DNA of 6,199 nucleotides from a virus (taxonomy: Duplodnaviria > Heunggongvirae > Uroviricota > Caudoviricetes). Below the pieces are notes generated by a model, which saw only the letters and a program-made list of their open reading frames with translations, did no database searches and was not told where the DNA came from. Of this stretch, positions 88 through 6,199 are shown piece by piece (positions within the stretch are counted from its first letter, which is position 1; each line of letters begins with the position of its first letter). A program made the translations under genes and the position numbers. Location: the IMG/VR virus record IMGVR_UViG_2681813316_000020. One strand, written 5' to 3'.

Positions 88-417
88 ATGCGTAAAGTTT
101 GTGCCGCCATTTTGTCCGCAGCCATTTGTCTGGCCGTATCCGGTGCGCCTGCATGGGCGTCTGAACATCAGTCCACGCTGAGCGCGGGGTATCTTCATGC
201 CCGGACGAACGTTCCCGGCAGTGATGATCTGAACGGGATTAACGTGAAATACCGTTATGAGTTTACGGACACACTGGGGCTGGTGACGTCATTCAGCTAT
301 GCAGGAGACAAGAATCGCCAGCTTACCCGTTACAGCGATACCCGCTGGCATGAAGATTCCGTGCGTAACCGCTGGTTCAGCGTGATGGCGGGGCCGTCTG
401 TGCGCGTGAATGAATAA
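88..417 (+). pseudogene. lom: Lom/Ail/OmpX-family outer-membrane protein, 3'-truncated remnant (109 codons)
   Basis: GAGAGG Shine-Dalgarno at 77-82, five nt before the ATG at 88. N-terminal signal peptide MRKVCAAILSAAICLAVSGAPAWA. Translation resembles phage lambda Lom (GINVKYRYE..., SVMAGP motifs) as I remember it, but stops at 109 aa where family members are about 170-206 aa, so the 8-strand barrel cannot be complete. Position before stf matches lambda gene order. Confidence 0.7.
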
Positions 418-485: not shown

Positions 486-1721
486 GTGAAAGCAGCTAAT
501 GATAATGCGAATGGTCGGGTACCTTCTGCCCGTAAGGTGAATGGTAAGGCGCTTTCAGCGGATATAACACTGACGCCGAAAGATATTGGTACGCTTAACT
601 CAACAACAATGTTATTCAGCGGTGGTGCTGGTTGGTTCAAATTAGCAACGGTAACCATGCCACAGGCGAGTTCTGTTGTTTCAATTACGTTGATTGGTGG
701 CGCGGGATTTAACGTGGGGTCACCTCAACAGGCAGGTATATCTGAACTTGTTTTGCGTGCAGGTAATGGTAATCCGAAGGGGATTACTGGTGCTTTATGG
801 CAGCGCACATCGACAGGGTTTACAAATTTTGCCTGGGTCAATACATCTGGTGATACTTACGATATTTACGTTGCAATCGGAAATTATGCGACTGGTGTAA
901 ATATTCAATGGGATTATACCAGTAATGCCAGCGTGACGATTCATACGTCACCAGCATATTCAGCTAATAAGCCGGAAGGGTTAACGGACGGTACAGTTTA
1001 TTCACTCTATACGCCATCAGAGCAGTTTTATCCGCCTGGCGCACCAATCCCGTGGCCATCAGATACCGTTCCGTCTGGCTATGCCCTGATGCAGGGGCAG
1101 ACTTTTGACAAATCTGCATACCCGAAACTTGCAGCCGCTTATCCGTCAGGCGTGATCCCTGATATGCGTGGCTGGACGATTAAGGGCAAACCCGCCAGTG
1201 GTCGTGCCGTATTGTCTCAGGAACAGGACGGCATTAAATCGCACACCCACAGCGCCAGCGCATCCAGTACGGATTTGGGGACGAAAAACACATCGTCGTT
1301 TGATTACGGAACCAAATCCACGAATAACACCGGGGCGCATACCCATAGTATTAGCGGGACTGCAAATAGTGCCGGTGCGCACCAACACAAGAGTTCCGGT
1401 GCATTTGGTGGCACGAACACGAGCATTTTCCCTAATGGTTATACCGCGATTTCAAATCTAAGCGCGGGGATTATGAGCACAACAAGCGGTAGTGGCCAGA
1501 CTCGTAATGCAGGGAAGACATCATCAGATGGTGCTCATACCCACTCGCTGTCCGGCACTGCTGCAAGCGCAGGCGCACATGCACATACTGTCGGTATTGG
1601 TGCTCATACGCACTCCGTTGCGATTGGTTCACATGGACACACCATCACCGTTAACGCTGCTGGTAACGCGGAAAACACCGTCAAAAACATCGCATTTAAC
1701 TATATTGTGAGGCTTGCATAA
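486..1721 (+). CDS. stf: Phage side tail fibre protein Stf, C-terminal portion (N-terminally truncated; reading frame open from 414 with no upstream start)
   Basis: Translation carries the conserved [21 protein letters not shown] motif just upstream of the GTG at 486 (in frame from 420). It also has the tail-collar segment [65 protein letters not shown], repeated HxH motifs, and the C-terminal end [22 protein letters not shown], all matching lambda Stf as I remember it. The only in-frame starts are GTG 486 and ATG 609, so this is a fragment of a normally much longer fibre gene. Confidence 0.85.
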
Positions 1722-2305
1722 TGGCATTCAGAATGAGTGAACAACCACAGACCATAAAAATTTATAATCTGTTGGCCGGAACTAATGAATTTATTGGTGA
1801 AGGTGACGCATATATTCCGCCTCATACAGGTCTGCCAGCAAACAGTACCGATATTGCACCGCCAGATATTCCGGCAGGCTTCGTGGCTGTTTTCAACAGT
1901 GATGAGGCATCGTGGCATCTTGTTGAAGACCATCGGGGTAAAACAGTTTATGACGTGGCATCAGGGGACGCGTTATTTATTTCTGAACTCGGCTCATTAC
2001 CGGAAAATGTTACCTGGTTATCCCCGGAAGGGGAGTTTCAGAAGTGGAACGGCACAGACTGGGTGAAGGATACGGAAGCAGAAAAACTGTTCCGGATCCG
2101 GGAGGCGGAAGAAACAAAAAACAGCCTGATGCAGGTAGCCAGTGAGCATATAGCGCCGCTTCAGGATGCTGTAGATCTGGAAATCGCAACGGAGGAAGAA
2201 ACCTCATTGCTGGAAGCCTGGAAAAAATATCGGGTGTTGCTGAACCGTGTTGATACATCAACTGCACCTGATATTGAGTGGCCTACGAACCCTGTCAGGG
2301 AGTAA
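1721..2305 (+). CDS. tfa: Tail fibre assembly protein (Tfa chaperone), apparently intact, 194 aa
   Basis: Translation [54 protein letters not shown]... is near-identical to lambda Tfa as I remember it. Its ATG overlaps the stf stop (TAATG at 1719-1723), the classic stf-tfa arrangement. Confidence 0.9.
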
Positions 2306-2319
2306 TCATTGGGATTATG

Positions 2320-2352
2320 CCGCAGCACGTCTTAAGCAAGAACGTGCTGCGG
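2320..2352. terminator. Strong hairpin between convergent tfa and methyltransferase genes; possible bidirectional terminator
   Basis: Seen in sequence: perfect 10-bp stem CCGCAGCACG (2320-2329) / CGTGCTGCGG (2343-2352) with a 13-nt loop. A T6 run follows on the plus strand only after an 8-nt gap (2363-2368), so the terminator role is inferred rather than canonical. Confidence 0.4.
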
Positions 2353-2359
2353 TTGGATG

Positions 2360-3028
2360 CTATTTTTTCCCTGAAGCGGAAAACATTACTACAGTACCTT
2401 GAACCTTGGTTTTAACATTCTCGAAATGCTCTGAGAGTATATGTGTTAAGCCTTCTTCGGAATCTTTTGTGTTTGAAAAGATGCCTTTCTGATTGTAAAT
2501 GCGCATCAGTTTTTGACCGAAGCTATTGTGCACAACTCCATCGCCAAGAATTGTGGCTCCGTATAGAGTTCCATCGTCAGTTAAGGCCTGCGCCGCATTG
2601 CGTATTACACAGCTTTTTGTAGATATATTTCCAGGCAGGCAGTGAAGAAGGTAAAACATGGAAATGGAATCAAATTGACCATGTAACGCCGCGGGATAAG
2701 GTTCAAAAACATCATGGCTAATTTTATGTTTAATTTTTGATTCCCCAGCCCTTGTAGATGCCGCGTTCAGGCTAGCTTCGTTCAAATCCATTAAAGATAT
2801 CAGACTACTCTCAGGTACGTGAGTAAGGTAAAACCCAGTTCCAACACCAATATCCAGATGGTTGTTACCTAAATGTTCCAGAAAGTGTGGAAGAAGGTGT
2901 TCCTTTGTAGGACATCCCCATGCAAGCCGATTTGATACTCCCAAAACCCACCAGTCATAAAGCTTTAGGGTAAGTGGTGTGTAAATTTTAGCCCCATCAT
3001 CTGTGTTTTTTTTCATTAATTTCACCAT
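2360..3028 (-). CDS. ybcY: Class I SAM-dependent methyltransferase (222 aa; possible true start at the second Met, 3014-3016)
   Basis: Translation contains the glycine-rich SAM-binding motif I LDIGVGTGF, an acidic post-I residue (LMDLNEA) and a motif II-like FDSISMFYLLHC. The gene symbol is assigned by synteny only (tfa - methyltransferase - tfaX - appY - ompT as in the E. coli K-12 DLP12 right arm), not by sequence recall. The first ATG has no obvious SD; the second Met is preceded by GGTGA. Confidence 0.75.
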   Translation of the reverse strand: MVKLMKKNTDDGAKIYTPLTLKLYDWWVLGVSNRLAWGCPTKEHLLPHFLEHLGNNHLDIGVGTGFYLTHVPESSLISLMDLNEASLNAASTRAGESKIKHKISHDVFEPYPAALHGQFDSISMFYLLHCLPGNISTKSCVIRNAAQALTDDGTLYGATILGDGVVHNSFGQKLMRIYNQKGIFSNTKDSEEGLTHILSEHFENVKTKVQGTVVMFSASGKK

Positions 3029-3084
3029 GTTATAGTTTTATTTGTGAATTAAATCAATTATGGCAATGAATTACAAGGGGTTAA

Positions 3085-3345
3085 ATGCTGCCGCAGCATA
3101 GCGATATTGAAATAGCCTGGTATGCTTCAATACAGCAGGAGCCGAATAGCTGGAAGACCGTCACCACACAGTTCTACATCCAGGAATTCAGTGAGTATAT
3201 TGCGCCACTGCAGGATGCTGTAGATCTGGAAATCGCAACGGAGGAAGAAAGATCGTTGCTGGAAGCCTGAAAAAAGTATCGGGTGCTGCTAAACCGTGTG
3301 GACACTTCCGTAGCACCAGATATCGAGTGGCTTATTCAACCATAA
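3085..3345 (+). pseudogene. tfaX: Tail fibre assembly protein C-terminal remnant interrupted by an in-frame TGA (3268-3270)
   Basis: Bases 3190-3345 are a direct repeat of the tfa 3' end (2141-2305), with a run of about 40 identical nt at 3211-3250 versus 2161-2200. The translation ...[40 protein letters not shown]... continues in the same frame after the TGA; the corresponding tfa codon is TGG (Trp, 2219-2221). The N-terminal 35 codons are unrelated to the tfa at 1721. Symbol by synteny with K-12. Confidence 0.7.
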
Positions 3346-3891
3346 TAAACAGTATGTATATCATAGGTTATTAATTGTGAGTTTTTTCGGTGTGTTATTT
3401 GTTTGTTTGATGTTATGCTTTTGCGCCCCAAAAGGTTGTTTAGATGTATTTTATCAATTGATTTTCAATATCGTTTAATAAAGAAAAATTAAGCAAGCTG
3501 GATGTTGGTTTTTTGTTAATTGAATGGTTCTAATAATGTTTTTTTTACTGTTGTTGAATGTGACTTGATAAGAAATGCAAGTAAAAATGATACTCTTTTT
3601 ATTTTAAATTCAAACGGTTGACATATATATAGCAAGAGGTTTCAGGTGCGTTGTAGTGAGTTTATGTTAATAAAAAGTATAGTAAGCGTTGAAAAATGTA
3701 ACTTTGAAATACGTTAGAATAAAAAACAATATACATATAATAATTTAATCTTAAATGAAATTTATTAAAATTTGCAAACTATAGTTTTGTGTATAAAAAT
3801 ATAAATGCACATCATCCTGATTATGATTGTGTATTTAATTGGTTGTTATTTGACTGCTATCAACTTGTTTTAATTTTATGATAGGTGCAAG
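3346..3891 (+). promoter_or_regulatory. Very AT-rich upstream/leader region of appY (promoter and probable nucleoid-protein silencing region)
   Basis: About 550 bp non-coding and strongly AT-rich by eye (roughly a quarter to a third GC), with many A/T tracts. It contains a consensus -35 hexamer TTGACA (3618-3623) but no well-spaced -10 that I can pair with it. appY is known to be H-NS repressed and ArcA/RpoS controlled (established knowledge); exact sites are not resolved here. Confidence 0.4.
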
Positions 3892-4641
3892 ATGGATTAT
3901 GTTTGCTCCGTAGTTTTCATCTGTCAATCATTTGATTTAATTATAAACAGGAGAGTTATCTCGTTCAAAAAAAATTCATTGTTTATTGTAAGCGACAAAA
4001 TTAGAAGGGAGTTACCAGTATGCCCCTCTAAACTAAGAATTGTTGATATAGATAAGAAAACATGTTTATCCTTTTTTATCGACGTGAATAATGAGCTGCC
4101 TGGCAAATTTACTCTTGATAAGAATGGCTATATTGCTGAAGAGGAACCTCCATTATCGCTTGTTTTTTCTCTGTTTGAAGGGATTAAAATAGCAGACTCA
4201 TACTCCCTTTGGTTAAAAGAAAGACTATGTATATCCTTACTTGCCATGTTCAAAAAACGCGAAAGTGTAAATTCTTTTATACTAACAAATATAAATACAT
4301 TCACCTGTAAAATTACTGGAATAATCAGTTTTAATATTGAGCGACAATGGCATTTAAAAGATATTGCGGAATTGATTTATACGAGTGAAAGTTTAATAAA
4401 AAAAAGATTAAGGGATGAAGGAACGTCATTTACTGAAATATTGAGAGATACTAGGATGAGGTATGCAAAAAAACTCATAACTTCAAACTCTTATTCTATC
4501 AATGTCGTAGCCCAGAAATGTGGCTATAACAGTACTTCATATTTCATATGTGCATTTAAAGATTATTATGGTGTCACGCCATCTCATTATTTTGAGAAAA
4601 TAATCGGCGTCACAGATGGAATAAACAAAACAATTGACTGA
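3892..4641 (+). CDS. appY: AraC/XylS-family transcriptional activator AppY (249 aa)
   Basis: Translation [27 protein letters not shown]... matches E. coli AppY as I remember it, with a C-terminal AraC-type HTH region (..[29 protein letters not shown]..). Extremely AT-rich coding sequence. Synteny with ompT as in E. coli K-12. Confidence 0.9.
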
Positions 4642-4845
4642 TAATGTTTATTACAAGTTGTCTACATGTTAATTATAATATTATACAGCGTTTTTTCTGA
4701 TGTGATATTCTGGAACCATTAATTTGTAATTGGGTTGCTGTCGCCTATTTTATACATACTATAATTGATGGTTTTCTATGTGATTTAGTTAATAACCTTC
4801 TGGGTTTATTTTAAGGGTTAATTGTTACATTGAAATGGCTAGTTA

Positions 4846-4874
4846 TTCCCCGGGGCGATTTTCACCTCGGGGAA
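4846..4874. terminator. Hairpin in the convergent appY/ompT intergenic region; putative shared terminator
   Basis: Seen in sequence: TTCCCCG (4846-4852) pairs with CGGGGAA (4868-4874) around a 15-nt loop and is followed by an A/T-rich stretch. It lies 17 nt downstream of the ompT stop on the minus strand and about 200 nt downstream of the appY stop. Confidence 0.4.
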
Positions 4875-4890
4875 ATTTTAGTTGGCGTTC

Positions 4891-5844
4891 TTAAAATGTG
4901 TACTTAAGACCAGCAGTAGTGATGAAGTTATAGTTTTCTATACCTGCTCCATTTTTGCTGTAGTCTGAAGTGTTATTATTGTGATCATAAAGTGAAGTAT
5001 TACCTTTTTTATTCGTAACCCGATTCCATGCGCCTTCAACATAAACTTTTGCGTTAGGTGTGACGTAATAACCTGCATTGACTGCAACAGAATAGTAATT
5101 TTGGTCTTTGACCTTACTGCGATAAGTGATTCTTTTTCCCGGGTCATAGTGTTCATCGTTATCAGATGATTCCACCCAGCCGCTGTATTTAAATGTGCCA
5201 CCGAGTTCAAAATCTTCATAACGATAACTTCCAGTCAAGCCAATGTAGGGCATTTTAAAACGTTGTTTGTAGCCGATTGCCCTTTCTCCATTCGGGAAGG
5301 AGCCGATATCATCTCTGAATCCCTCCTCAGAACTGTAGATATAGGAACCACCTCTGGCTGTAAAGCTATAACGGCTTTCCTGATATCCGGCCATGAGTCC
5401 CAGGCGGTAATTGGGTTCGTTGAGGAGCCAGCCTTTGATATTCAGATCAAATTCGTTGGCATAATTGAGTTGTGTATCAGGGTGTCTACTTTCATCCGTC
5501 CAGGTTCCGGGGTTACTGGAATCCATCCAGTCCTGATCGACCATATTGCCACCTCGGCTGCCGAGAGTTGTCCAGCCAGCAGCCCCGATAGATATCTGGG
5601 GCATCAAATCCCAATTAATTGCACCTTTAATAATTGCAGCGTTATTGAATTTCCAGTCGAGTTGACTGACTTTTCGGCCTCCTTCTTCGGCTAGATAAAC
5701 ACGCTCTTTTGTTTTTCCGCTCAGAGTTCCAAGACTAATGTCCGCATTTATGTTGTCAGGAGTAAACGATAAAGTCTCGGTAGAAGCAAAAGAGCTGATC
5801 GCAATAGGGGTTGTCAGGAATATTCCCAGAAGTTTCGCCCGCAT
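4891..5844 (-). CDS. ompT: Outer-membrane protease OmpT (omptin, protease VII), 317 aa with signal peptide
   Basis: Translation MRAKLLGI.LTTPIAISSFASTETLSFTPDNINADISLGTLSGKTKERVYLAEEGGRKVSQLDWKF...AGLKYTF matches E. coli OmpT as I remember it. GGAG Shine-Dalgarno 7 nt upstream of the ATG (minus strand). Confidence 0.95.
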   Translation of the reverse strand: MRAKLLGIFLTTPIAISSFASTETLSFTPDNINADISLGTLSGKTKERVYLAEEGGRKVSQLDWKFNNAAIIKGAINWDLMPQISIGAAGWTTLGSRGGNMVDQDWMDSSNPGTWTDESRHPDTQLNYANEFDLNIKGWLLNEPNYRLGLMAGYQESRYSFTARGGSYIYSSEEGFRDDIGSFPNGERAIGYKQRFKMPYIGLTGSYRYEDFELGGTFKYSGWVESSDNDEHYDPGKRITYRSKVKDQNYYSVAVNAGYYVTPNAKVYVEGAWNRVTNKKGNTSLYDHNNNTSDYSKNGAGIENYNFITTAGLKYTF

Positions 5845-6106
5845 AAAAGTTCTCCATTCAATCGTTTTAATGATTGAATATGTATTTTTTATATCTAACT
5901 TAATGAGTCAATTACATATTGCTCCACTGTTTATATTTTGTTTAGTATTGAATGATTATCACAATGCGCTATCTGTTTTTGGTTTAATTATCTGTTATTG
6001 TTTCATATTGCGGTTTTACTGTGTGGTTTTTTTATGCTTTTGTGGTGCTTTTATCTATTTGAGTGCCATGCCTTTAGAGGCATATAAGCGAAAATAGCAT
6101 GAGGTT
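5845..6106 (-). promoter_or_regulatory. ompT 5' leader/promoter region, AT-rich, bounded upstream by the IS3 insertion
   Basis: Non-coding AT-rich region immediately upstream of the ompT start (minus strand). Promoter elements are not resolved by eye; the region ends at the IS3 terminus at 6107. Confidence 0.4.
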
Positions 6107-6199
6107 TGATCCTACCCACGTAATATGGACACAGGCCTAAGCGAGGTTCTGGTTTTCAAATTGTTCCGGACTGAGGCCGCCACACCAACTGTGCCGCCG
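6107..6199 (-). mobile_element. IS3 insertion sequence, right-end inverted repeat and adjacent interior (partial; element continues beyond the window)
   Basis: 6107 onward reads TGATCCTACCCACGTAATATGGACACAGGCCTAAGCGAGG..., which matches the reverse complement of the IS3 right terminus as I remember it (IS3-family TGATC... end). The minus-strand translation downstream is the IS3 transposase C-terminus. Confidence 0.8.
6137..6199 (-). CDS. insF: IS3 transposase OrfB (InsF) C-terminal end, partial (5' part outside the window)
   Basis: Minus-strand translation from the window edge reads ...RRHSWCGGLSPEQFENQNLA then stop (TAG = plus-strand CTA at 6137-6139). This matches the C-terminus of IS3 OrfB as I remember it. 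Confidence 0.75.
   Translation of the reverse strand, partial: RRHSWCGGLSPEQFENQNLA

Follow-up and report, generated by a model that had tools for sequence, protein, structure and literature searches.

A directly repeated tfa 3' block around the ybcY methyltransferase gene of a DLP12-type prophage

In the modular theory of Susskind and Botstein, phages exchange modules at conserved boundary sequences. Fibre genes reportedly follow this rule, and their horizontal transfer is said to have been described in 1992 both by Haggard-Ljungquist et al. and by Sandmeier et al. A second kind of mosaicism is that of the moron, a concept of Hendrix and Juhala, which is an autonomous transcription unit set in among conserved genes of the phage, frequently close to the tail-fibre end. 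In prophages of pathogens, the cargo loci found beyond the fibre genes include the exchangeable effector loci of the O157 lambdoid prophages and the sopE moron cassette of Salmonella phages. Duplicated sequence beside tail-fibre genes is also a mark of the invertible systems Gin of Mu, Cin of P1, Pin of e14 and Min of p15B, in which inverted repeats, short crossover sites and a serine invertase bring about a reversible switch of host range.

The locus described here lies in a stretch of 6,199 nucleotides, the window, from a virus of the Caudoviricetes (IMG/VR record IMGVR_UViG_2681813316_000020). Positions 1867-6113 (4,247 nt) are 99.0% identical to K-12 MG1655, including two copies of a tfa repeat and the TGA of tfaX, and the K-12 annotation reads tfa (partial), class I SAM methyltransferase (frameshifted), tfa (internal stop, N-terminus missing), appY and ompT. 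Judged by sequence, the feature is the tfaD-ybcY-tfaX segment at the right end of a DLP12-type lambdoid prophage, beside appY-ompT, and the 99% match means that the locus has already been annotated. Locus and architecture are the same as in the K-12 DLP12 right end (tfaD-ybcY-tfaX-appY-ompT), but the window has a full-length tfa and an intact ybcY (222 aa), whereas the K-12 tfaD is 5'-truncated and its ybcY frameshifted; it also has a lom-stf deletion of its own, of about 2 kb, and an IS3 end past ompT. The window stops in this IS3 fragment, 270 nt past ompT, and relatives with the same sequence run on into envY-ybcH. In the literature on ybcY/tfaX and on tfa repeats, morons and recombination, no paper found describes the cassette or its deletion. 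The locus and its mosaicism are known, and what is new here is the evidence on how the repeats behave among natural strains. Overall, the feature is real and explained, and it is ordinary phage mosaicism.

The repeat pair and the parts of the locus

The locus consists of the following parts, in positions of the window:

1721-2305, plus strand: intact lambda-type tail fibre assembly gene tfa (194 aa; equivalent of K-12 tfaD), PF02413 Caudo_TAP match with E = 3.7e-45
2129-2285, plus strand: repeat copy A, the 3' end of tfa, coding for the conserved C-terminal part of Tfa; core 2162-2201
2319-2352, no strand: GC-rich hairpin on which tfa and the methyltransferase gene converge, resembling a bidirectional terminator and shared with lambda
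2360-3028, minus strand: intact class I SAM-dependent methyltransferase gene (ybcY), Pfam-supported; likely true start at Met5 (3016)
3029-3177, no strand: cassette-specific spacer with the predicted divergent promoter region and the 31 opening codons peculiar to the copy-B ORF
3085-3270, plus strand: copy-B ORF of 61 codons, a truncated tfa remnant (K-12 tfaX), matching PF02413 profile positions 74-105 only
3178-3334, plus strand: repeat copy B; core 3211-3250; its frame would end at TAA 3343-3345
3346-3891, no strand: AT-rich flank (24-29% G+C) toward appY, the right-hand context joined by hybrid tfa alleles

A repeat search of the whole window finds a direct repeat of 157 nt at 2129-2285 and 3178-3334, ungapped, with 84% identity and a start-to-start spacing of 1049; the second-longest direct-repeat family measures 28 nt. 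The original prediction, made from the letters of the window, had set a repeat of about 160 bp at 2141-2305 and 3190-3345. This repeat is real and highly significant, but it had been started some 12 nt too far to the right and carried on through a final 20 nt or so of each copy where the resemblance between A and B is already gone. The roughly 40 consecutive identical bases that it mentioned are exactly 40 nt, at 2162-2201 and 3211-3250, and MAFFT alignment with a comparison in register adds a run of 14 nt. The 40-nt run is the longest exact repeat in the window, and 100 shuffles give a maximum of 16 and a mean of 12. A BLAST comparison of the tfa region with the downstream region returns 143 nt at 86% (E = 2.4e-41), and the similarity of the two segments, which the prediction had proposed to check by pairwise alignment, extends beyond a short motif.

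Each copy keeps codon register in the frame to which it belongs, and the codon differences between the two comprise 13 synonymous and 8 nonsynonymous ones. They share the same orientation, and the repeat search of the window found no long inverted repeat touching the region. A 10-nt sequence in the hairpin arm, TGCCGCAGCA, recurs where the copy-B ORF starts; with an E value of 0.9 it is taken as chance.

The tfa gene, annotated in relatives as 'tail fiber assembly protein', is 92.5% identical to lambda together with 49 nt downstream, and the lambda homology extends to 2354. It therefore takes in the hairpin, whose RNA fold has -28.5 kcal/mol on the plus strand (z -4.7) and -23.9 on the minus strand (z -5.9), and which a simple terminator scan does not call as a terminator.

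The second copy had been taken for another tfa 3' end. This holds for the repeat itself, but the ORF that carries it opens with about 31 codons (3085-3177) that are foreign to full-length Tfa. No full-length Tfa with this N-terminus was found, all proteins that have it being 82-142 aa long, and copy B is therefore not simply the tfa 3' end. Nor does it fit a full-length two-domain Tfa of about 190 aa, as its Caudo_TAP match is partial (32 of the profile's 131 positions, 74-105) and a TGA interrupts it in the window. This TGA, at 3268-3270, closes the ORF where copy A has TGG, and relatives annotate the ORF with 'internal stop; missing N-terminus'. Intact forms of 82-101 aa elsewhere have TGG at that position.

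The ybcY methyltransferase and its distribution

The only gene between the copies is, as anticipated, a methyltransferase on the opposite strand (2360-3028), with matches above the cut-offs to the Pfam families Methyltransf_12, 23, 25 and 11 and 99% identity to a 222-aa cluster of 6,589 members. In the family alignment Met5 is invariant, as are D59, G61, G63, T64 and G65, the glycine-rich motif I of a Rossmann-type SAM-binding fold. The AlphaFold model (pLDDT 89) matches many class I methyltransferases in Foldseek with probability 1.0, the top matches being small-molecule and lipid methyltransferases, and the nearest relatives by sequence and fold are UbiG, JHAMT, PE and phosphoethanolamine N-methyltransferases and natural-product methyltransferases. 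No NCBIfam match was informative. A DNA methyltransferase, such as an anti-restriction phage methylase, was considered and rejected, since none of the families of that kind (N6_Mtase, DNA_methylase, MethyltransfD12 and similar) appears among the Pfam and NCBIfam matches and the best sequence and fold matches are of other kinds. From the model, ybcY most likely methylates a small molecule or a lipid in the lysogen.

Several traits make the gene a putative moron of host origin with a predicted promoter region of its own. Its G+C content is 0.41-0.43 against about 0.50 for tfa, and homologues with 56-65% identity are chromosomal in Salmonella and Enterobacter, with no phage neighbours. A promoter-like site with a TG-extended -10 lies upstream of it on the minus strand (3084 to 3057), and an in vitro RpoD holoenzyme/H-NS SELEX site, TTGATT-17-TATAAC, has been reported in the spacer between ybcY and tfaX (PMC3946193) and is present in the window at 3059 to 3031. 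With the strong flanking hairpin, these traits agree with the earlier suggestion of a moron or of a junction between fibre modules. They also bring it close to other lambdoid morons: it is an extra gene of lower G+C on the opposite strand, with promoter-like sites, a hairpin and host chromosomal homologues, and among otherwise near-identical phages it may be present or absent, being missing from lambda, ev099 and A14 and carried by PhiR26_1, 2G7b and PhiR68_2. Unlike those morons, the ybcY moron is accompanied, at the end away from tfa, by a fragment of that adjacent structural gene; it is therefore bracketed by homology, and could be lost, and possibly gained, by homologous recombination.

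Among 5,426 complete E. coli genomes, 3,846 contain the methyltransferase together with its spacer, with 4,956 places in all, and the spacer is nearly always found with the gene (3,803 of 3,851 records). They are also carried by the isolated temperate phages PhiR26_1, PhiR29_1, PhiR30_1, PhiR68_2, 2G7b, ev243, Kati and Turner. The arrangement methyltransferase-spacer-copy B-appY is found in 561 of the 5,426 genomes, and all 561 loci are at least 99% identical across 3029-3500.

Module joints and cassette-less alleles at the tfa block

The methyltransferase is joined to at least four upstream fibre modules and to several downstream cargoes, which bears out the alternative of a fibre-module junction. 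Left joins of the cassette fall at 2186, 2208, 2314 and 2320 and right ends at 3284, 3314 and 3331, and the C-termini of copy-B ORFs are of at least four kinds after NRVDTS, one of them made by insertion of IS66. 2G7b and ET896 have one identical illegitimate junction (register 2186/3235), after which 2G7b continues as A-type into the methyltransferase and ET896 as B-type into appY. The longer duplicate, 2140-2354, is found in loci L019 and L025. In O157, an extra 2.8-kb block with Mn-catalase and yciEFG-like genes stands between tfa and the methyltransferase; a recent capture of the chromosomal yciEFG was rejected, the identity to the chromosomal genes being only about 74%. Two other readings fell away. 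In hit H100, a part of the spacer (3131-3177) that seemed to lie within a stf gene really reflects an illegitimate deletion from stf into the spacer, with an overlap of only 1-2 nt in the annotation. A supposed A-type fragment upstream of the methyltransferase of PhiR68_2 was given up, as the BLAST homology of this phage begins at 2320, past the tfa stop.

As in modular fibre exchange, the tfa 3' block joins stf/tfa modules of lambda type, Rac type and 2G7b type on one side and downstream cargo (appY-ompT, hydrolase-ompT, the yciEFG flank, IS66) on the other. It differs from such exchange (Sandmeier 1992 is a reference in PMC12315714) in that a single genome has two copies of the boundary block, so that deletion within a genome comes on top of exchange between genomes. 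Like the O157 and sopE cargo loci, the locus holds accessory genes between tail-fibre genes and the prophage end, with conserved phage flanks and exchange among phages, but the methyltransferase is a cargo without a known virulence role, and it is the tfa 3' end in particular that supplies the homology at its flanks.

The survey of relatives that had been proposed turned up both cassette-less alleles with a single tfa and alleles with extra cargo between the copies. The former, with stf, a single tfa of 576 nt and then appY, are present in nine of the 5,426 complete genomes; six were sequenced through, and H146, H148 and H149 were classed by identical score alone. A synthetic A/B deletion product used as query gave single-piece, full-length matches. 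Each of the six sequenced hybrids has one clean switch from A to B, at four positions inside the repeat:

2161-2202: switch interval of L010 and L011
2227-2237: switch interval of L009
2242-2251: switch interval of L012
2254-2257: switch interval of L014 and L015

The four intervals span about 95 nt. The TGA of copy B is inherited in two hybrid alleles only, both with the switch upstream of it. L014 and L015 correspond to phage PhiR68_2 (gene order tfa-pin-ynaE-methyltransferase-tfa') minus 2.8 kb, with 99.63% identity on the left flank and 99.64% on the right. Over the right flank, only 0-3 substitutions separate cassette-less alleles from particular cassette-bearing ones, whereas bearing alleles differ among themselves by up to 12; the exception is L012, at 10 substitutions from its nearest bearing allele. 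The left flanks of L009-L012 have a best bearing match of 97-98.6% in a small sample of bearing alleles. The right-flank relations suggest that the cassette-less alleles nest within the cassette-bearing diversity. Strain A14 and phage ev099, in contrast, were discarded as excision products: their tfa is A-type up to register 2283 and then gives way to unrelated DNA with a different AraC gene, so that they merely have different right arms.

The forecast that recombination between the repeats would excise the methyltransferase is thus matched by natural alleles of that structure in nine genomes, with four crossover intervals. To judge from these alleles, the repeats serve recurrent deletion by homologous recombination and the swapping of fibre or cargo modules; they are not a site-specific or invertible system.

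Origin of the arrangement and its alternatives

The explanation that very probably holds as a whole is that of a DLP12-type tfaD-ybcY-tfaX segment, made up of a moron of host origin and a truncated tfa relic, whose repeats recombine homologously. The putative moron, with its predicted promoter region, lies just downstream of tfa and the terminator-like hairpin, and the 5'-truncated relic of a second tfa allele comes after it. Such a layout may have come from illegitimate or unequal recombination between two lambdoid phages, joining 'tfa-hairpin-methyltransferase-spacer' of one to the last 160-215 nt or so of the tfa of another. The divergence of 16% between A and B, mostly synonymous, fits two alleles rather than a duplication in situ. 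Some prophages have retained the longer duplicate, which takes in the hairpin as well as the tfa 3' end. As the natural alleles indicate, the repeat block, which codes for the conserved C-terminal part of Tfa, acts as a portable homology arm and as an attachment joint, with different fibre modules on its left and different cargo on its right, and homologous recombination between the full tfa and copy B deletes the intervening DNA and leaves one in-frame hybrid tfa. This would probably proceed by RecA or by phage Red or RecET, with the 40-nt identical core as the likely segment of initiation; no dedicated recombinase or specific site would be involved.

The opposite polarity, in which the single-tfa alleles are ancestral and a resident tfa received the cassette in a single insertion (say, through unequal crossing-over between the copy B of a donor and the tfa 3' end of a recipient), is mechanically plausible. 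It would explain why the 3' ends of copy B differ by context, with an A-type end in many loci, and the near-identity of the 561 bearing loci over 3029-3500 (at least 99%) fits a single origin at the locus. It is nevertheless very improbable: four switch points in nine genomes cannot be one ancestral allele, two full-length hybrid tfa genes contain the derived TGA of copy B, L014 and L015 are PhiR68_2 less 2.8 kb, and the cassette-less state is rare (9 against 561) and nested in bearing haplotypes at 0-3 substitutions. A better, if still somewhat doubtful, case can be made for hybrids formed in trans, the tfa of another lambdoid phage, resident or infecting, recombining with the DLP12 copy B so that the whole left arm was replaced and the cassette lost with it. 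Partners are plentiful, with a median of six places per E. coli genome matching the window and two matching a 452-nt query of the tfa/copy-B junction; the left flanks of L009-L012 are 1.4-3% away from the bearing alleles sampled, and ET896, E. coli C and 2G7b show whole fibre modules swapped at the block. For L014 and L015, however, the left and the right flank are each 99.6% identical to a single cassette-bearing phage, and deletion in cis is the simplest account. Since the same repeat is the substrate of recombination, exchange in trans is a variant of homologous recombination at the repeats and not an alternative to it. That the cassette is instead a mobile element or a site-specific cassette (a transposon, integron-like or invertase-driven), the repeats being target duplications or recombination sites, is hardly credible, even though the unit of methyltransferase and copy B occurs at many loci and in many phages and a pin serine recombinase gene or its remnant adjoins it in PhiR68_2 and L025. 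The window holds no transposase or recombinase, most contexts have no pin gene, and the crossovers fall in four intervals and not at one site; the repeats are direct, and at 157 nt and 16% divergence they are no target-site duplication. The original prediction had likewise set the locus apart from a Pin/Gin-type invertible segment, and rightly so, no resolvase or invertase ORF being present in the window and pin lying next door only in some relatives. What the DLP12 repeats have in common with Gin, Cin, Pin and Min is duplicated tfa-related sequence beside tail-fibre genes and, in some relatives, a pin gene or remnant beside the cassette; they differ from them in being direct, with no invertase in the window, with scattered crossovers and with a deletion that is irreversible.

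A further reading concerns copy B, which could be a functional mini-gene for a short protein with the conserved C-terminal domain of Tfa. Its expression would diverge from that of the methyltransferase, and selection on the protein would maintain the repeat. Intact forms of 82-101 aa with the same start codon are very common (P0023 has 514 members and P0022 about 1,000 contigs), an AAGGGG motif resembling a Shine-Dalgarno sequence lies 4 nt upstream of the ATG, and the spacer holds the RpoD holoenzyme site (PMC3946193). This is very improbable all the same. The window, K-12 and even PhiR68_2, a viable phage, have a TGA that cuts the ORF short, the C-terminus of the ORF is swapped for unrelated sequence or cut by IS66 according to context, and PMC3946193 predicts a tfaX promoter that overlaps the ATG. 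For a dN/dS test the sequences are too alike. It would be a long shot that the 82-101 aa form is a working 'mini-Tfa', with a novel N-terminus of about 35 residues joined to the conserved fibre-binding C-terminal domain, and that lysogens express it divergently with the methyltransferase. If it were, it could be a generic fibre chaperone or a decoy against the fibre assembly of superinfecting phages, and the repeat would be kept by selection and would not be debris.

With the reading of a moron followed by a tfa relic, a conserved block of about 160 nt from tfa, a tail-fibre chaperone gene, duplicated around a moron, would have served for homologous deletion on at least four separate occasions, as inferred from the alleles. 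Deletion and swapping driven by this repeat would explain why ybcY and tfa fragments are present, absent or pseudogenised across E. coli strains, and the repeat pair explains the two 'tail fiber assembly' features in the pipeline annotation of the locus. The gene ybcY, a pseudogene in K-12, is an intact and conserved enzyme in about 70% of complete E. coli genomes and in viable phages, and its function is a more interesting question than the behaviour of the repeats.

Locus identity and the tfa 3' repeats

Judging from megablast searches against 5,426 complete E. coli genomes, the window represents the right end of a DLP12-type lambdoid prophage. K-12 MG1655 matches positions 1867-6113 at 99.0%, and its annotation lists, in order, a partial tail fiber assembly protein, a frameshifted class I SAM-dependent methyltransferase, a tail fiber assembly protein with an internal stop and a missing N-terminus, appY, ompT and envY; in K-12 gene names the locus is tfaD-ybcY-tfaX-appY-ompT, and "YbcY" is the label on the methyltransferase in one phage record. 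An ORF and Pfam survey gave the following gene content.

Gene content of the window
88-417: truncated Ail/Lom gene
486-1721: side tail fibre gene (stf), C-terminal 411 codons
1721-2305: tfa, intact, lambda-type tail fibre assembly (PF02413)
2360-3028, opposite strand: class I SAM-dependent methyltransferase
3085-3270: 61-codon ORF, partial Caudo_TAP match
3892-4641: AppY, AraC-type regulator
4891-5844, minus strand: OmpT
6103-6199: IS3-family end (final 97 nt, ~270 nt past ompT)

K-12 continues towards envY at the point where the window has the IS3-family end; IS3 copies that match this end at 98-100% occur on many plasmids. By comparison with strain M25631H, ~2 kb is missing at 415-416, which joins lom to mid-stf, and this prophage copy is therefore defective for side fibres, whatever the state of tfa; the first 109 codons of lom are retained in the fusion. 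The extremely AT-rich tfaX-appY intergenic region (3346-3891, 24-29% G+C) has been described in published work as a "promoter island" that is transcribed divergently and bound by H-NS (PMC4469952, PMC3946193).

A repeat search of the window revealed an ungapped direct repeat of 157 nt and 84% identity, with a spacing of 1049, between the tfa 3' end (copy A, 2129-2285) and a segment downstream of the methyltransferase (copy B, 3178-3334). The original prediction had placed such a repeat here, with about 40 consecutive identical bases; both statements hold, and its coordinates were essentially right but slightly shifted. The identical core measures exactly 40 nt (2162-2201/3211-3250), BLAST aligns the copies over 143 nt at 86% (E = 2.4e-41), the second-longest direct repeat in the window has 28 nt, and the longest exact repeat in shuffled windows (n = 100) has 16 nt, so that the similarity is far beyond chance. 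Each copy is in codon register within its own reading frame, and the 21 codons that differ (13 synonymous, 8 nonsynonymous) carry the signature of two alleles diverging while protein-coding. A TGG in copy A is TGA in copy B, which makes copy B a pseudogene fragment here, as in K-12.

The ~31-residue N-terminus of the copy-B ORF was found in no full-length Tfa in a search for such proteins. Intact copy-B ORFs of 82-101 aa are present in many prophages and phages. The short copy-B proteins share a common N-terminus followed by at least four different C-termini after "...NRVDTS", because the right-hand sequences vary, window homology among relatives ending at 3284, 3314 or 3331. The spacer is 150 nt long. 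A 10-nt stretch in the left arm of the hairpin downstream of tfa, TGCCGCAGCA (2319-2328), is found again where the copy-B ORF begins (3089-3098), within the near-palindrome ATGCTGCCGCAGCAT; with a BLAST E of 0.9, this recurrence is probably due to chance, but it might be left over from an older junction.

The methyltransferase as cargo

The methyltransferase is intact in the window and 99% identical to a 222-aa cluster of 6,589 member sequences. Since Met5 is invariant in an alignment of 26 family members and homologues have 218 aa, the true start is probably ATG 3016 rather than 3028; a Shine-Dalgarno-like GGTGA precedes ATG 3016 on the minus strand. Family members at 56-90% identity occur in Citrobacter, Salmonella, Enterobacter, Klebsiella, Yersinia, Erwinia, Aeromonas and Shewanella, those of Salmonella and Enterobacter lying among ordinary chromosomal genes without phage neighbours. 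Among solved structures, sequence comparison gives weak matches (UbiG, JHAMT); the confident AlphaFold model (pLDDT 89) resembles class I methyltransferases of lipids or small molecules and not DNA methyltransferases.

The convergent tfa and methyltransferase genes are separated by a strong hairpin at 2319-2352 (z = -4.7 on one strand, -5.9 on the other). Lambda has it too, being homologous to the window from the beginning of tfa through 2354. The methyltransferase thus sits in the place of lambda's first leftward b-region gene. The flanking hairpin, a G+C content of 0.41-0.43 (tfa, ~0.50), predicted promoter-like sites upstream and the host homologues together give the gene the hallmarks of a moron. 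Genomic SELEX has placed an RpoD holoenzyme and H-NS site in the divergent ybcY/tfaX spacer, assigning TTGATT-17-TATAAC to ybcY (PMC3946193), a sequence found in the window. In relatives, the RefSeq annotation has a 45-aa ORF at 2278-2415, named "nucleocapsid protein" or "hypothetical protein"; it overlaps the tfa stop, the hairpin and the methyltransferase 3' end and looks like a spurious call.

Alleles without the methyltransferase

A query built as the expected outcome of deletion, with tfa as far as the core followed by copy B and its flank, gave full-length, single-piece matches. With a shorter junction-specific query, nine genomes were found in which a single tfa runs directly into the copy-B end and then the appY flank, compared with 561 genomes carrying methyltransferase-spacer-copy B-appY. 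Six of the nine alleles were retrieved, and their A/B diagnostic sites were scored against the appropriate copy-A reference. All six contain stf, one 576-nt tfa, appY and ompT, and each displays one clean A-to-B switch, in four different intervals overall.

A-to-B switch intervals in the retrieved cassette-less loci (copy A coordinates)
2161-2202: L010, L011; within the 40-nt core, with the copy-B TGA
2227-2237: L009; hybrid tfa intact
2242-2251: L012; hybrid tfa intact
2254-2257: L014, L015; "A" parent a Rac/PhiR68_2-type tfa, hybrid tfa intact

The other three genomes are assigned to the L014/L015 class solely by identical score. The copy-B nonsense codon (register 2219-2221) occurs only in L010 and L011, which both switch upstream of it and whose tfa is annotated with an "internal stop". 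L014 and L015 correspond to phage PhiR68_2 (left, 99.63%, 4 mismatches in 1,081; right, 99.64%, 3 in 2,201) without its tfa end-pin-ynaE-methyltransferase-spacer interval.

Over the shared 2-kb right flank, these alleles nest at 0, 1 or 3 substitutions from particular methyltransferase-bearing alleles, which differ among themselves by up to 12, and their junctions differ. The switch points, this nesting and the ratio of 9 to 561 mark the cassette-less alleles as derived, independent and rare, as recurrent homologous deletion between the repeats would predict and an ancestral single-tfa state would not. Some hybrids (L009-L012) may have formed in trans with another prophage's tfa and not by deletion in cis, which is a variant of the same mechanism. 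As read from the diagnostic sites, natural alleles with the exact A x B recombinant structure exist with several crossover points, in line with the expectation that recombination between the repeats would excise the methyltransferase.

A fifth case comes from another background, where one and the same illegitimate junction, ...GAGCTGTATAT joined to GCAACGGAGG..., occurs at register 2186/3235 in both phage 2G7b and strain ET896; past it, 2G7b is A-type and continues into the methyltransferase, and ET896 turns B-type and continues into appY. This join at 3235 is also present in E. coli C. In strain UR21/11-869 (L013 3501-3760), everything between a point within stf and spacer position 3131 has been lost by illegitimate deletion, so that the stf 3' end, tfa and methyltransferase are gone and copy B is kept.

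The tfa 3' block as a joint between modules

Of the 5,426 complete genomes, 3,846 have the methyltransferase and spacer segment (2306-3177), in a total of 4,956 locations with at most four in any one genome. It is also found in the isolated temperate phages PhiR26_1, PhiR29_1/2, PhiR30_1, PhiR49_1, PhiR68_2, 2G7b, ev243, Kati and Turner. The methyltransferase is nearly always accompanied by the spacer and copy B; the left modules vary.

Modules to the left of the methyltransferase
Lambda-type stf-tfa: window, PhiR26_1
Fibre module of another type, its last gene encoding a small membrane protein, join at register 2186: 2G7b
Rac-type stf-tfa-pin-ynaE, join at 2320: PhiR68_2
Mu/e14-like inverted Tfa pair and resolvase remnant, join at 2208: L025
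2.8-kb Mn-catalase/yciEFG-like block, inserted between 2284 and 2314: O157

On the right lie appY-ompT, an alpha/beta hydrolase with ompT, a chromosomal yciEFG-trp flank or an IS66 element. The same tfa 3' block, compared across these relatives, serves as the joint for alternative fibre modules and cargoes, and the proposal of a moron or a fibre-module junction is borne out in both parts, by the host-type, low-G+C gene with its promoter-like sites and by the several left modules and right cargoes.

The alternative fibre module ends in a gene for a hydrophobic 98-99 aa protein (MDITPFLHALCAVAAQ...; L006 2682-2981 in 2G7b, L003 3688-3981 in ET896), directly upstream of a truncated tfa fragment. 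In O157:H7 prophages (L018 3370-5583; L028 1565-3778), the Mn-catalase and yciE/yciF/yciG-like block, only ~74% identical to chromosomal yciEFG, lies between tfa and methyltransferase, and copy B is cut by an IS66/ISEc8 element. In the L025 prophage, which adjoins yciEFG-trpA, a decayed Pin-type invertible segment (1694-4077) directly precedes the methyltransferase-copy B unit on its upstream side; it comprises a Tfa/Tfa' pair in inverted orientation, a fibre C-terminus of an alternative type and a resolvase remnant of 60 aa.

The moron has a copy of the tfa 3' block on either side, and the two copies have diverged. In the relatives L019 and L025, copy B is homologous to copy A through the tfa stop and hairpin (2140-2354, 216 nt, 90%), and the older form of the duplication was therefore "tfa 3' end plus terminator". 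The duplication would have arisen through illegitimate or unequal recombination between two lambdoid phages, one contributing "tfa-hairpin-methyltransferase-spacer" and the other the distal ~160-215 nt of its tfa. Later exchanges would have relied on RecA or the phage Red/RecET systems, as in any ordinary homologous recombination, with the identical core as the probable starting point; all switches lie at or right of it, and 40 nt is about the length these systems need. The ORF and Pfam survey showed no recombinase in the window, and the repeats are direct with scattered junctions, so a site-specific system is unneeded and the locus, as originally proposed, is not a Pin/Gin-type invertible segment.

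The cassette behaves like a classical moron located where the tail-fibre genes of a lambdoid genome end. The conserved tfa 3' block resembles in its behaviour the "linker" or boundary homology that modular theories of phage evolution, and studies of fibre-gene exchange by horizontal transfer, have invoked. The defining features of Gin/Pin/Cin-type invertible segments, transposons and site-specific cassettes were tested in this locus and are lacking, which sets it apart from all three. The object itself is already known and annotated as the K-12 tfaD-ybcY-tfaX locus, and a literature search retrieved no published account of repeat-mediated ybcY loss. The analysis confirms the observation and supports its interpretation: the feature is real and ordinary, its mechanism is understood, and the repeat-mediated loss of ybcY is an incremental finding and does not define a novel type of system.
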